The notes under the pieces are model-generated. The model was not told the origin of the DNA and did no database searches. It saw only the letters and a program-made list of their open reading frames with translations. Below, in pieces: positions 1 through 3,608 of a stretch of 64,000 nucleotides of DNA. Source of the DNA: Bdellovibrionota bacterium (lineage in GTDB: Bacteria > Bdellovibrionota_C > UBA2361 > OMII01); assembly GCA_044356215.1 (NCBI GenBank), contig JBIKWQ010000002.1:1-64000 (forward strand), given 5' to 3'. Position numbers and translations under genes: made by a program. Every line of letters starts with the position of its first letter. Position 1 is the stretch's first letter.

Positions 1-97
1 CTCGGGTGGTCGGGGACGGGCTGGGACTGCGACACCTGTTGATTTCAGAATAAAAAAATCCCGCCGTCACCAGCAGGATTGCAAATTCTCTCAACAT
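1..97 (-). CDS. Partial ORF of a probable third integron cassette (MLREFAILLVTAGFFYSEINRC...), running off the window edge
   Basis: ATG at 97 is preceded by GGAGG and lies just downstream of the attC R' site (GTTGAAC at 125-119); the frame is open to position 1. Confidence 0.45.
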   Translation of the reverse strand, partial: MLREFAILLVTAGFFYSEINRCRSPSPSPTTR

Positions 98-118
98 AAC
101 CTCCGCGCAAGCGGGTTA

Positions 119-177
119 GTTCAACGATCGCGTGATTTGCGCCCGACTAGGGCGTCAAATCCACGCGTTTGTTATAG
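119..177 (-). mobile_element. attC site (59 bp)
   Basis: Minus strand reads CTATAAC-AAACG-CGTGGATT-TGACGCCC-TAGTC-GGGCGCA-AATCACG-CGATC-GTTGAAC. This gives R''/L''/L'/R' boxes, 5-bp spacers and two unpaired bases (G in L'', then A). Confidence 0.9.
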
Positions 178-644
178 CCCTGTTCGAGCTCGCGGACATC
201 AATTATATCTGTTTCCCGACCGGCCATCTTCTTGTACTCAATAAGCCGATCTCGCCGAATAACTGGAACTTCAACTCCGAGTACCGTCACGCATTCGGTA
301 ATCGACAGATCCGTAGGCCAATGTATCCACGTTCCTAAACGCACATCTCGAATCAGTAGGCTATCCGCTCCACCAAGTTCAATCGCTTGGCCAAGGTATG
401 AAATGCCCAGAATTTGACAGTCGAAACACTCATTGACCGAGTGTTCAGGGCCAAAGTCGACATGCGCTTTCAGTTCATTTGCCAGCCGCGGAAGCACCGA
501 GTCGGGAACATCGATATCGATGTCATTTAACGGGCGAGAACCACCGTACGCAAGCGTTGCAAGGCCACCCACAATAACAAAGGGGATGTGGCGTTGAGTC
601 AGTTCGTTCACAATCCAAATCAGCGCGGCTTCAGAGTCGATCAT
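147..644 (-). CDS. Nucleotidyltransferase-fold protein (GG...DxD), integron cassette gene
   Basis: Motif VGGLATLAYGGSRPLNDIDIDV. Start moved to ATG 644 because the ORF-track TTG at 668 lies inside the upstream attC. The stop codon lies in the loop of the downstream attC. Confidence 0.75.
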   Translation of the reverse strand: MIDSEAALIWIVNELTQRHIPFVIVGGLATLAYGGSRPLNDIDIDVPDSVLPRLANELKAHVDFGPEHSVNECFDCQILGISYLGQAIELGGADSLLIRDVRLGTWIHWPTDLSITECVTVLGVEVPVIRRDRLIEYKKMAGRETDIIDVRELEQGYNKRVDLTP

Positions 645-655
645 TGTGGGCCAAG

Positions 656-750
656 CTATAACGTTCAAATCAAAAGTTTCGCACCATTCGTAAACTTACT
701 CAAATGAAAGACGGCAACAATGCGAAATCTTTTGCATTTTATTGTTATGC
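656..750 (-). mobile_element. attC site (95 bp)
   Basis: Minus strand reads GCATAAC-AATAA-AATGCAAA-AGATTTCGCA...TGCGAAACT-TTTGATT-TGAAC-GTTATAG. It has the same unpaired-G and unpaired-A geometry as the 119-177 site. Confidence 0.88.
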
Positions 751-821
751 AATTCTACCAAGCTACATTAGAGCTCTTGATACTGTTTCCTAAAAAACTC
801 ACAACGGCAAAAAAGGCTAGT

Positions 822-1730
822 TCACTCAATAATAAGGCACGGCAATATGAAACTGCCTTTATCATTGCTGGCACTCACGGCAGCGCTAAATAATAGCAGA
901 GCATTTTCATCGGGATACCCTGCGCGGGCGGCACGAAACTCTCGGTTAATTTCTCCGATTGATACACCACTAATAACCGCGGCAGCTGTAAGAATTGCAT
1001 TTGTGGTTGGAAATCCGCCACTTGCTTGTGCGAATATTGCATTTACCTCGTCGATTGACTTGCCGGCTCCCGCTGCACAAACAGCTAAAAGGGCATTTTC
1101 ATCGGGATATCCTGCACGGGCGGCACGAAAATCTCGGTTGATTTTTTGAATGGACACACCGCTAATAAGAGCTCCTGCTGTCAGGATCGCATTTGTGGAT
1201 GGAAATTTACCCTCTGCTTGCGCAAAAGTTGCATTTACCTCGGTGATCGGCTTTCCAGTTTCTGCTGCACAAACAGCTAAAAGTGCATTCTCATCGGGAA
1301 ATCCAGCACCGGCAGCATGAAATTCTTGATTGATTTTTTGAATGGACACACCGCTAATAAGAGCTCCTGCTGTCAGGATCGCATTTGTGGATGGAAATTT
1401 GCCCTCTGCCTGTGTGTATTTTTCGTTAGCTTCAGTGATCGGAGTATTGGAGAGACAAGAAGCCGAGGCTAAACAAGCATTCTCATGGGGGAACCTGGTT
1501 TCGGCTTTAGCGAAGGCGTCATTTGCTTTGCTGAGCGCCAGCCCAAGCGGCGAATTGTCAGGAACTGGCAAGGCAACTGGCGGTTGGCATCCGGTTAGCA
1601 TCACCAAAGAAGGAAGGGCCATAAGTTCAAACATGCTTGTCAGCATACTGCGCCTTGAAAGTCTCTCACTGGATGATAGATTTGTTGTTGTAGGATCGAC
1701 TTTAAGTCTAATATCGTCGGCCGTTTTCAT
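822..1730 (-). CDS. Putative Tat-exported lipoprotein with seven 32-aa repeats, integron cassette gene
   Basis: SRRSML twin-arginine-like motif and LTGC lipobox. Repeat pattern is N..F..A...FP..NA.L; a DNA repeat with 192-bp period is visible at 1141 and 1333. Purine-rich RBS before ATG 1730. Confidence 0.7.
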   Translation of the reverse strand: MKTADDIRLKVDPTTTNLSSSERLSRRSMLTSMFELMALPSLVMLTGCQPPVALPVPDNSPLGLALSKANDAFAKAETRFPHENACLASASCLSNTPITEANEKYTQAEGKFPSTNAILTAGALISGVSIQKINQEFHAAGAGFPDENALLAVCAAETGKPITEVNATFAQAEGKFPSTNAILTAGALISGVSIQKINRDFRAARAGYPDENALLAVCAAGAGKSIDEVNAIFAQASGGFPTTNAILTAAAVISGVSIGEINREFRAARAGYPDENALLLFSAAVSASNDKGSFILPCLIIE

Positions 1731-1790
1731 TCTGGAACCCCTCTTCCTATAGTCTTTAGTGATATTACGCCAGGGCAAAAATCAAATGTT

Positions 1791-1812
1791 GCATAACAGT
1801 ATTATTTACCCG
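1791..1812 (-). mobile_element. First-cassette core site (G/TTATGC), candidate attI
   Basis: GTTATGC at 1797-1791 is complementary to R'' GCATAAC of the 656-750 attC. No attC hairpin was found upstream. Confidence 0.55.
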
Positions 1813-2027
1813 TTCTTCTCAGCACTCTACCTCGTCCTGCAGATCCTAAACAACACTTCAAAGCTCCTAGATATACAGCAGTGTATTATACCCTATTTAC
1901 AGCCTATTAGGCTTTATTGAGCTGGAGATCTACCTGTTAACCTTAATCGCCTCCCTGTAGATCCACCCTAAAAAAATCTTGGGTAGATCCGCAGTTCGGC
2001 TGTTCCAGAGCTCAACTTTTGTCCTGG

Positions 2028-2119
2028 CTCTTCGATGATCTCTCGGTGCAGCCTGGGTGATCACCACATGAGGCACAGGACTGCCGAGCAATAGAATCCA
2101 CTTGAGGAGAATTATCCTA
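2028..2119 (+). pseudogene. Possible decayed integron-integrase N-terminus
   Basis: With two frameshifts and one stop it reads LFDDLSVQ/LGDHHMRHRTAEQ*NP/LRRIIL, matching the spacing of the IntI N-terminal LLD.....IR..HYS.RTE..Y..WIRRFIL pattern. It is divergent from the cassettes. Confidence 0.3.
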
Positions 2120-2165
2120 AAACGGCAGATAAGGCTGATGGAAATGCAGCAGCATCATCGCCGCT

Positions 2166-2687
2166 TTAGCCCCTTACTTTCACCAGATACTTATTCAGCG
2201 ACAAAAGAAACGGCCTGAACTCTTGCATGTACCTCTCTACCTCACGCGGCTTATATCCACTCGAAGTAATCAGCGCGTTCTCTTCATCTGAACACCTCCG
2301 CTGGATCGGCACCGCGATATCTGTCGAGTTAAGACCATCCCAAGCAGCGATCGGAAGGACCTCTTGAAGCCCGCTGTCCCACGACGCGTCGAGATCAATC
2401 CAGACACCTGTCTCTGGAATAAATACACGCAGCCACTGATGCCACTCCTCGTCATTTGGAAGCAGATCGATCAGCTCAACAGGTAGGTTTAATTGTCGCC
2501 AAGAGAAGGTGCCGTAAGCAAAAATACTCCCGATTCCTAACGACGCGAGCCTCCTCTGGAGCATGAAGCTTTTCGTAGCGCAGCTCGCGTCAGCCTCACC
2601 ATCAGTGGCGATATGATAAGGGATATCTCGTACCTCTTTGAATAAGTGCTGACGCTTTTGGATGGTATTCATAAATTCTTTGCACAT
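2166..2687 (-). CDS. Transglutaminase-like (Cys-His-Asp) protein
   Basis: VRDIPY, SCATKS...LGI, HQWL and WIDLDASW motifs. Confidence 0.7.
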   Translation of the reverse strand: MCKEFMNTIQKRQHLFKEVRDIPYHIATDGEADASCATKSFMLQRRLASLGIGSIFAYGTFSWRQLNLPVELIDLLPNDEEWHQWLRVFIPETGVWIDLDASWDSGLQEVLPIAAWDGLNSTDIAVPIQRRCSDEENALITSSGYKPREVERYMQEFRPFLLSLNKYLVKVRG

Positions 2688-2798
2688 GACACTTAATCCG
2701 CTCAGGAAACAGCTGGCTGTGATGATTCAGCTACAACTTAATCATGTAGAATTTGGTGTCTACCGTCATCACTGGGAATTTTTCAGGCAATACTCCTT

Positions 2799-3056
2799 TA
2801 GGGAAGGCCGGCAAAACCCCTCCCTACTGCGAAAGCGGATCTTGAGGTGCTCTTCGAGTTTTCGAGATGGGAAAAAATCCTCAATGTATCACAGGGGATA
2901 CACTTCCGGCCTTCGCTAAAGCTACGGCCGGCGAGGCTTTTGTCGGACCAGACGTAGCCTTGGCGTAGTCTGGTGCGGTTTTTTCCCATCTCGAAAATCG
3001 AATATCAACTCAACCTCCACTTTCTCGCTACGGGTAGGTTTTGCCGGCCTTCCTTA
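2799..3056 (+). mobile_element. Palindromic MITE-like element, copy 1 (with nested insert)
   Basis: Terminal IR TAGGGAAGGCCGGCAAAA...TTTTGCCGGCCTTCCTTA; homologous to copies at 9713, 42987 and 51683. Confidence 0.9.
2905..2973. repeat. Nested REP-like doublet inside MITE copy 1
   Basis: CCGGCCTTCGCTAAAGCTACGGCCGG...CCAGACGTAGCCTTGGCGTAGTCTGG; absent from copies 3 and 4 at the same position. Confidence 0.85.
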
Positions 3057-3176
3057 GTAATGTGGGAGAGACTACCCCTTCCAAGGTGGCGACCGCAAGA
3101 TATCAGACCGCAATAAATTCGGATGATTAGCATCACGCAATAGCTCGATCGACCGCGCCGTGATACCCTGCTTGAT

Positions 3177-3608
3177 ATGTCCGCCAAAGGTAAGGTTAAT
3201 ATCCCGGAAGGGGAGATTGAGTTCCGTTTCTCTAGGGCCGGCGGTCCGGGAGGCCAAAACGTAAATAAAGTAGAGACGAAGGTCTTGGTGGTTTTTGATT
3301 ACGTAAACTCCAACTGTCTAAGCTGGGAGCAGAAGGGGCGGATAGGAGCTAATAAGGCGGTGAGGTCGCGGCTGGATGCTGAAGGGAAGATCTCCATCTC
3401 AAGTCAAGAGCATCGCACACAGGCTTTAAATCGTGAGGCAGCGATTAAGAAGCTCCATGAGCTGATCAATTTAGCTCTGTTTATCCCTAAGAAGCGCATT
3501 CCAACCAAGAAAACTCGCTCAAGCCAACGTAAGCGAGTTGAAAGCAAACGTGTTCGTGGCGCTACTAAATCTGTAAGAGGAAGAGTTCGAGAAATTGATC
3601 AAGAGTAG
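3177..3608 (+). CDS. arfB: Alternative ribosome rescue peptidyl-tRNA hydrolase ArfB
   Basis: GPGGQNVNKV motif, RTQALNRE, basic C-terminal tail. Confidence 0.93.
   Translation: MSAKGKVNIPEGEIEFRFSRAGGPGGQNVNKVETKVLVVFDYVNSNCLSWEQKGRIGANKAVRSRLDAEGKISISSQEHRTQALNREAAIKKLHELINLALFIPKKRIPTKKTRSSQRKRVESKRVRGATKSVRGRVREIDQE

Follow-up and report, generated by a model that had tools for sequence, protein, structure and literature searches.

Sedentary chromosomal integrons are known, for example, in Vibrio and Xanthomonas. A cluster of attC sites lacking an integron integrase is referred to as a CALIN (Cury et al. 2016, PMC4889954). The part of that paper dealing with such clusters reports that attI sites could not be searched for in most integrons and that intI pseudogenes lie near only 15 of 279 CALIN. 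Since attI sites are unknown for most integrons, surveys usually cannot separate the routes by which a CALIN arises. Here we consider an integron cassette array at one end of a contig (JBIKWQ010000002.1, hereafter C9) from the draft genome of a Bdellovibrionota bacterium (GCA_044356215.1). The window under study is the first 64 kb of this contig, position 1 being the contig end. Positions 1-2045 very probably represent a satellite integron platform without an integrase of its own. Read along the minus strand, a paralog of an attI region (attI') is followed by cassette 1 with a 95-nt attC site, by cassette 2 with a 59-nt attC site and, at GTTGAAC, by the end of a repeated unit, here called X.

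The array is thus a known kind of element. It resembles a CALIN in that two or more attC sites share one strand, intI is missing from the vicinity, the genome contains a complete integron, and the cargo is of unknown function with no known resistance gene. In contrast to such clusters, it is still headed by an attI-region homolog. With sedentary integrons it shares the chromosomal location, the mostly unknown cargo and the genus-wide occurrence, and toxin-antitoxin-like cassettes are present elsewhere (on contig C112, by eye, and in genome G060, by Pfam). It differs from them in that its attC sites are heterogeneous in length (59 and 95 nt) and share little sequence identity, and in that several platforms coexist with one intact integrase: intI remnants are found on contigs C92 and C74 and attI copies on C9 and C92. 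As 21 of the 35 genomes in the genus have an integron integrase above the cut-off, several of them with extra fragments, the kind of element is in itself ordinary. What sets the locus apart is the retained orphan attI and the recombinase/IS91 unit at an attC site.

The draft genome comprises 3.24 Mb in 131 contigs, the shortest of which is at least 2.5 kb. The runs from other studies that hold the stretch (X2 to X5) are labelled as lake-water metagenomes. The features discussed below are collected in Table 1.

Table 1. Features at the left end of the window (ORF, open reading frame; MITE, miniature inverted-repeat transposable element; a slash within a sequence marks the crossover point)
Feature	Position	Strand	Details
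Left terminus of ~2.3-kb X unit	1-124	-	top strand TTGAAC (124-119), terminal repeat TAACCCGCTTGC (118-107), terminator-like hairpin (80-57)
attC site A	119-178 (model match 119-177, 59 nt)	given as bottom strand (+)	R' box 119-125 (top strand GTTGAAC), R'' box 171-178, extrahelical C161 and T155
Cassette 2	125-661, 537 bp	-	G/TT crossover points; ORF 147-644, 165 aa, stop codon within attC A
attC site B	656-750, 95 nt, 37-nt variable loop	given as bottom strand (+)	R' box 656-662, R'' box 744-750, extrahelical C and T on 3' arm
Cassette 1	662-1796, 1135 bp	-	G/TT crossover points; ORF 822-1730, 302 aa
attI-region paralog (attI')	1791-2045	-	core AATACTG/TTATGC, crossover between 1797 and 1796
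Expected intI start	2046-2165		weak similarity to leader on contig C13 only, alignment decays; no integrase coding sequence
173-aa ORF, family unknown	2166-2687	-	same direction as cassettes, occupies intI position
MITE-like repeat	2798-3057		~260 bp, ~80-bp terminal inverted repeats; bounds integron segment on chromosomal side

The cassette ORFs lie on the minus strand, so that the plus strand corresponds to the bottom, recombinogenic strand of the attC sites. Folded as plus-strand DNA, site A (110-190) reaches -19.3 kcal/mol (z = -4.0, none of 200 shuffles being as good). In this fold AAC (123-125) pairs with GTT (171-173) and is followed by a 6-bp stem, the bulged C161, a 5-bp stem, the bulged T155, a further 5-bp stem and a 5-nt loop. 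The hairpin of site B follows the same plan, with 4 bp, a bulged C, 6 bp, a bulged T, 7 bp and a 37-nt loop. Both sites thus present the paired AAC...GTT, spacers of equal length on the two arms (3/3 nt in A, 4/4 nt in B), L boxes and a length within the range of about 50-150 nt. The two extrahelical bases that the initial annotation of this DNA had placed at equivalent positions are a C and a T, in both cases on the 3' arm of the plus strand, with none on the 5' arm. Extrahelical bases of class 1 attC sites are G and T, from which the C and T found here differ. In the bottom strand of an attC site, bulges on the R''/L'' arm mark the strand that is recombined, according to a figure legend in Cury et al. 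(PMC4889954, Figure 2).

The sites were also sought by pattern and by model. A geometric scan of the whole genome (AAC/GTT, spacers of 3-6 nt and two single-base bulges restricted to the 3' arm) was specific in its stringent class of at least 16 bp without mismatch, which contained five real matches against 0, 0, 1 and 1 in four null sequences. Both sites of the window are among the five, with 16 bp for A, 17 bp for B and no mismatch in either. A strict RYYYAAC/GTTRRRY pattern found neither site, since their boxes are degenerate. In place of the attC model of IntegronFinder, covariance models were made from this clade's own sites and contained no window sequence. Model R2, made of four sites on contigs C13, C92, C36 and C112, returned only two matches at E <= 10 over the 64 kb, at 119-177 (56.6 bits, E 1.1e-12) and at 656-750, with the very ends given in the initial annotation. 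Since R2 penalises long loops, a model R3 was built from one long attC (C112:2745-2836); it gives 656-750 42.8 bits (E 1.7e-8), the next match in the window having 11.9 bits. Moreover, 16 sites, site A among them, were collected with R2 from metagenome contigs, this genome and its relatives. Compensatory change is seen in 15 of the 18 pairs of their alignment, and 89.6% of the cells are paired, compared with 35-43% when the partner is slid; this alignment was fitted to R2 and is hence biased toward the model. A scan based on minimum free energy was dropped for excess noise, and so were MAFFT alignments, in which attC sites differing in length lost their structural register. Model R1, trained on site A of the window, proved too narrow and missed site B, and served for the collection of sites only.

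The boundaries of the cassettes agree with these sites. On the minus strand, cassette 1 starts with G/TTATGC at 1797-1791, which is complementary at 7 of 7 bases to its R'' box GCATAAC (750-744). Cassette 2 starts with G/TTATAGC at 662-655, complementary at 8 of 8 bases to GCTATAAC (178-171), i.e., GCTATAAC against GTTATAGC. The same rule holds for the cassette linked to intI on C13 (GCAGAAC and G/TTCTGC) and for that on C112 (GTATAAC and G/TTATAC). Such a match between the R'' box and the cassette start is what IntI leaves behind when it crosses over between G and TT. The cassette limits and the complementarity proposed at the outset are therefore confirmed, and attC geometry and boundary footprint together substantiate the claim of an IntI-type cassette array.

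The sole intact integron integrase of the genome, revealed by the genome-wide search that had been proposed together with the initial annotation, is encoded at C13:23904-24842 (TIGR02249, 436 bits against a cut-off of 265). The C13 integron has its own attI and a first cassette unlike that of the window. Judged by IntI, the nearest public records are metagenome-assembled genomes (MAGs) labelled Pseudomonadota and Bdellovibrionota. The IntI frame itself (L001 1276-2664) is 462 aa long, an N-terminal DUF5710 being fused to the SAM-like and catalytic domains, and one IntI copy of a congener is similarly long (472 aa). Remnants of intI with stop codons or gaps are found at C74:14130-14324 and C92:41101-41256. 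The first of these is internally deleted and lies near the contig end; the second is part of a decayed integron piece (C92:38957-41925) with an attI core, two TGA codons within the intI remnant and two attC sites.

The evidence that carries our interpretation comes from the head of the array. The attI' region is 74% identical over 254-255 nt to the region between intI and attI on C13, and the junction with cassette 1 falls in the same alignment column as the attI/cassette junction there (AATACTG/TTATGC versus AATACTG/TTCTGC). Its upstream part contains repeated GATCT-CAGG-type motifs common to intI-linked attI regions, and it aligns with the intI-adjacent regions of two MAG records (L016 and L017). 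Among the 34 congeners, three have a DNA match to attI', in each case beside an intI gene or a pseudogene or fragment of one; a second, weaker match in one genome (G065, contig C32) lies outside the checked set. A shorter copy of the attI core is present at C92:40312-40386, near the intI remnant of that contig. The array is thus headed by an attI paralog, homologous to at least four intI-adjacent regions and, by this homology, a candidate attI site. One contig of run X5 (211 nt) joins attI' 1791-1844, with no differing letter, to another cassette-side sequence, only TTATGC being common to both, which hints at cassette turnover or an alternative first cassette at attI'.

No integrase gene adjoins this attI'. 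As the initial annotation had stated for the head of the array, intI is missing: C9 has no TIGR02249 match at E <= 10 and no tblastn match with the genome's own IntI. Unrelated sequence occupies the position where a complete integron would have intI beside attI and cassettes. The 173-aa ORF found there matches no Pfam or NCBIfam family and no DNA in the 34 congeners; six proteins resemble it at E <= 0.001, none with a functional name, and one of the six, at 98% identity, is likely this very gene. Positions 2100-2152 form a repeat of about 50 bp that also occurs at C101:24109-24161 (87%), there 3' of a 333-aa ORF without known family, and on C124. With two attC sites and no intI found on C9, its left side being cut by the contig end, the locus conforms to a CALIN, one of the two possibilities raised at the outset, with the qualification that an attI paralog has been retained. 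We infer from these comparisons a CALIN that has kept its attI and would have arisen by the loss of intI. The retained attI homolog points to route (iii) of those set out in the CALIN section of PMC4889954, i.e., loss of intI in one of several integrons.

According to this interpretation, an integron was presumably duplicated, or diverged, and then lost its intI. The C13 integrase may still excise the cassettes of the window and use attI' in trans, since the attC sites are intact, the core and motifs of attI' are conserved and an IntI of the cognate type is encoded. The X unit would have entered at the attC site by means of its own enzymes or else in the manner of an outsized cassette, and its approximately four copies in the genome break the assembly.

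What competes with this interpretation can be weighed against the same data. That the two hairpins are not attC sites at all, and instead are fortuitous or are palindromes of another kind, for instance terminators or repetitive extragenic palindrome-like (REP-like) sequences, is extremely improbable. The loose form of the geometric scan was unspecific, with 20 matches in the genome compared with 9-19 in the four nulls (reversed or Markov), and the free energy of 656-750 is ordinary (z = -1.5, 19 of 200 shuffles being as good). However, palindromes of this sort would account neither for the R2 and R3 scores and the compensatory pair changes nor for the complementary boundaries of both cassettes, an attI homolog at the head of the array, an integron integrase in the genome and related attC sites flanking homologous cargo elsewhere. 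A different possibility is that IntI inserted the cassettes into ordinary chromosomal DNA, where a GTT served as secondary site, and insertion of cassettes outside att sites has reportedly been described in a preprint. This route figures in the CALIN section of Cury et al. 2016 (PMC4889954). We nevertheless consider it highly improbable here, as 250 nt past the first cassette are homologous to the intI-adjacent attI of C13, of two MAG records and of three congeners, with the same junction column. It is likewise very unlikely that the cassettes are the distal part of the C13 integron, split by the draft assembly, with no second platform. In its favour, the same section notes that an integron that has been split will be counted as one integron and one CALIN (PMC4889954), 194 of the 262 contig ends of this assembly overlap other contigs, and C13 ends in the same 126 nt in which C9 begins. 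But both contigs enter these 126 nt in the same orientation, so that a single copy cannot join them, and the common stretch has four left neighbours and about fourfold depth. Moreover, the window array is headed by its own attI region, which differs by 26% from that of C13, and is then continued by non-integron sequence. The attI paralog at the head thus argues for loss of intI in one of several integrons and against both secondary-site insertion and a split C13 array.

The chromosomal side of the platform raises the question of a binning or assembly chimera, in which two strains or species would have been joined at the MITE-like repeat and the true genome would have an integrase beside attI'. 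Copies of this repeat are found on many contigs, often at contig ends, and most of the full-length ones are about 92-98% identical; a shorter form lacks 2910-2973. In two relatives arfB adjoins a 471-aa gene with no integron at the site, whereas the ortholog of the latter gene lies here on contig C84 and is followed by a MITE-like copy at C84:4978-5231 (the break comprises window 2798-3608 and C84:3483-5231). With the repeat situated 750 bp from attI' and synteny broken at arfB, segment 1-2797 has been connected with the remainder of C9 either by a rearrangement or by a misassembly. The copy at 2798-3057, the break and the metagenome-like source of the draft would all suit a chimera, which we nonetheless regard as hard to credit. 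The missing integrase should start within about 120-350 bp of 2045, where the convergent 173-aa ORF lies instead, in unique sequence before the repeat is reached. In addition, contigs of X2 and X3 tile 1832-2800, including the unique sequence 2046-2797, without a differing letter, with neighbour overlaps of at most about 30 nt and, in X2, two tiling pieces that do not overlap at 2062-2065. Contigs of the same two runs cover most of 97-2800, likewise with no differing letter and including the attC sites and the junction of attI' with cassette 1, in several pieces and never in one; in X3 cover is nearly zero at 128-278. The absence of intI beside attI' stands under a rearrangement and a mis-join alike. 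No date for the loss of intI could be obtained from synteny, as the relatives have no integron beside arfB.

Besides the ordinary free energy of site B, several points weigh against our interpretation of the locus as a platform that has lost its integrase. The score of site B with R2 is weak (15.2 bits, E 0.33), and R3, which recovers it, has one training site only; 656-750 is absent from the whole-genome listing of R3, in which a loose first pass kept 20 candidates. A search of 1797-2165, 5' of the cassettes and on their strand, revealed no sigma-70-like promoter, so that their expression is unsupported. The draft is fragmented and may represent a mixture of strains. The contig begins inside the array, the sequence past the X unit lying outside it, and on the other side a mis-join in the repeat, as well as a rearrangement, could have brought 1-2797 next to the following part of C9. 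The junction in run X5 is that of a single contig at depth 2.3, and four of the seven loci examined around homologues of the cassette 2 protein (see below) show no attC at E <= 1 beside them.

The presence of the X unit at the very end of the contig adds a second layer to the locus. The initial annotation had described a third cassette running off the left edge. A further element does lie beyond attC site A; it is not ordinary cargo, since positions 1-124 are the terminus of a multi-copy recombinase/IS91 unit. The first 124-127 nt of the window are identical at three other contig ends (126 nt on C13, 127 nt on C109 and 124 nt on C55), and the four copies have four different left neighbours. 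Divergence sets in one base past GTTGAAC in C9, C13 and C109, whereas in C55 the first base of this heptamer already differs (ATTGAAC). That the contig starts at the X terminus is explained by the repetition of the unit. In runs X2 to X4 the first 124-126 nt of the window form the end of a 2.4-2.7-kb unitig whose depth is about four times that of the adjoining array unitigs (30.8 versus 7.8 in X2, 21 versus 5.5 in X3), depth not being equal to copy number, and the loose ends of this unitig reproduce the contexts of C55 and C109. The recombinase and IS91 transposase genes of X are absent from the present assembly, in line with a fourfold repeat that the draft omits.

The content of the unit can be read from its copies elsewhere. 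In two congeners, copies 83-85% identical to the window terminus constitute the leader of the gene for a tyrosine recombinase, and the gene for an IS91-family transposase comes next. Their domains are Phage_integrase plus SAM_4 and then Zn_Tnp_IS91 plus Y2_Tnp (L058, L059), that is, the Y2 HUH transposase with N-terminal zinc-binding domain that characterises the IS91 family. The X recombinase is about 30-32% identical to IntI. A 20-nt motif of the terminus was found in 16 metagenome contigs; it is preceded by GTTGAAC in 12 of these, by ATTGAAC in two (one locus type) and by neither in two. A recombinase is encoded in nine of the ten contigs with at least 600 nt downstream of the motif. The R2 match to an attC ends exactly at the X junction in all three congener copies and at the base before the motif in 10 of the 16 metagenome contigs. 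Two of the contigs (L065 and L067) are identical to the window terminus at 126 of 126 positions, and there the terminus is followed by frames of 320 and 397 aa, which match the recombinase and the IS91 transposase of the congeners by tblastn. The 397-aa frame of L067 is 75% identical to the congener transposase. The whole unit of L067 measures 2297 bp from TAACCCGCTTGC to GCAAGCGGGTTA, after which come GTTCAAC, a hairpin with a 19-bp stem and ATTATGC. Complete X units in two further contigs are 2261 and 2273 bp long. One copy of G060 (L058 3804-4988, on G060:C54) is decayed and has a gene for a DUF4143/AAA_14 ATPase within it.

The manner in which X reached the attC site can be read in two ways. 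The terminal repeat is preceded by GAAC at all four contig ends of this genome, in the three congener copies and, among the 16 metagenome loci, in 14. Every copy with GAAC also has TT before it, and before this TT a G, except for C55 and L062/L064, which have A. The IS91 family inserts beside a GAAC or CAAG tetranucleotide, without target duplication. The constant TT-GAAC context, in most copies with a G before it, fits IS91 targeting and IntI-type crossover equally. X may be an insertion sequence (IS) with its own target choice, GAAC being the target of the IS91 family. Alternatively X may be an outsized cassette, whose TTGAAC start matches the GTTCAAC before its hairpin; with this matching GTTCAAC and an attC-like hairpin at its far end, X may move as a cassette. 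An initial reading of X as an ordinary repeated cassette was given up in view of the recombinase and transposase genes of the congener copies. A small ORF at its start (GGAGGTTATG...) was rejected as a gene, being unconserved in the congeners. A group IIC intron was discarded as well, since the junction is on the R' side and the start is unlike that of a group II intron, as judged by the known features of such introns.

Known mobile elements associated with attC sites comprise the IS1111-attC insertion sequences and the group IIC-attC introns (PMC9229058, PMC8876359, in their sections on these elements). Like these, X is multi-copy, holds a fixed position with respect to attC, interrupts arrays and breaks assemblies. 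The literature consulted on elements combining IS91 and a recombinase at attC yielded only a remark on the IS91-like ISShvi3, adjacent to attC in a Shewanella integron (PMC9229058), which is not proof of absence in print. X has a transposase of the same family as ISShvi3, as that remark gives it. In contrast to the elements described, X pairs its IS91-type transposase with an upstream tyrosine recombinase and follows a complete R' box GTTGAAC. We tentatively propose, at somewhat less than even chances, that X is a hybrid, integron-dwelling mobile element in which an IntI-like tyrosine recombinase is combined with an IS91-family rolling-circle transposase. It would be bounded by GTTGAAC-TAACCCGCTTGC ... 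GCAAGCGGGTTA-GTTCAAC and possess its own attC-like hairpin. Such an element might insert specifically at the attC R' box, as a self-mobilising giant cassette or by means of its own recombinase, multiply in arrays (to about four copies here) and help to fragment them and to create platforms without integrase. If borne out, the recombinase/IS91 unit would constitute a third class of attC-associated mobile element and would explain the poor assembly of arrays in such genomes.

The value of the platform lies in what it may tell about the origin and use of such arrays. The attI homolog separates integrase loss from secondary-site insertion and from array splitting, and the locus would thereby show how at least one CALIN arose. 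Moreover, this genome, in which a single intact IntI coexists with two remnants of intI and with attI copies at three loci, offers a natural test case for the use of several docking sites by the same integrase in trans. The locus also contributes a pair of uncharacterised cassette proteins, and one of them has the fold of antibiotic- and tRNA-modifying nucleotidyltransferases. The claim of uncharacterised cargo was correct, as neither protein matches a family at curated thresholds.

The 165-aa protein of cassette 2 contains a GG...DIDID nucleotidyltransferase motif, of which G-G...D-x-D is invariant in the alignment of the family. It has no match in Pfam or NCBIfam at curated thresholds; below the Pfam cut-off it is met by DUF2204 (19.8 bits) and by the ANT(2'') model PF10706 (Aminoglyc_resit; 17.9 bits against a cut-off of 21). 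Only nine homologues were found, none functionally named, and a profile of the nine leads to TM1012 (E 0.003) and LnuA (E 0.012). The AlphaFold model has a pLDDT (predicted local distance difference test) of 92. In Foldseek it matches TM1012 with a template modelling score (TM) of 0.77-0.81, MenT1 with 0.65, LnuA with 0.60 and ANT(2'')-Ia with 0.58-0.60. TM1012, LnuA and ANT(2'')-Ia (PDB 2ewr, 4fo1, 5cfu) share fold and size with the 165-aa protein, but they are only 15-22% identical to it and the ANT(2'') Pfam model stays below its cut-off, and toxin enzymes of the MenT1 type match the fold about equally well. The cassette 2 product is thus, as modelled, a small nucleotidyltransferase of the TM1012/LnuA/ANT(2'') kind. 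The gene for ANT(2''), aadB, is a classical integron cassette gene. Homologues of the 165-aa protein have a patchy spread: 8 of the 34 congeners possess one, as do, across the order, 18 of 91 genomes with this genome counted. As to the possibility that such genes occur in the same context without attC sites in related genomes, they are flanked by attC in three of the seven loci examined (L027, L028, L029). Together with the model matches at both attC sites of the window, this leaves the initial annotation unrefuted by the conditions set for it. Judged by this sequence context, the nucleotidyltransferase gene is a mobile cassette gene, itself borne by cassettes in other genomes.

The 302-aa protein of cassette 1 has a different character. 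Its N-terminus shows, by eye, an RR motif, a hydrophobic stretch and a lipobox-like LTGC, after which follow about eight helix pairs of 32 residues. These include the product of a 192-bp tandem repeat of the ORF (x2.7 at 901-1409). AlphaFold predicts an all-helical repeat (pLDDT 83), which resembles only designed alpha/alpha toroids, and these weakly (TM 0.3-0.47); no natural structure matches the predicted fold. Searches of Pfam and NCBIfam at curated thresholds, of a word index and of the Atlas gave nothing. Among 1.84 billion representatives there are 19 weak relatives (best E 4e-20); an ankyrin protein among the weakest HMMER matches was not accepted as kin. The cassette 1 product is, from its predicted features, an orphan helical-repeat lipoprotein. 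An allele in run X3, in which 1137 joins 1330, lacks exactly one 192-bp (64-aa) unit, a repeat-number polymorphism.

A further cassette of this genome lies between two attC sites on C112 (L011 1695-2836). It carries a two-gene pair that resembles, by eye, a Phd/YefM-type antitoxin and a RelE/ParE-type toxin. Judged by the orientation of the attC sites, the two genes are not on the top strand of the cassette but on the other one. The gene pair is followed by a degenerate attC with GCT for GTT.

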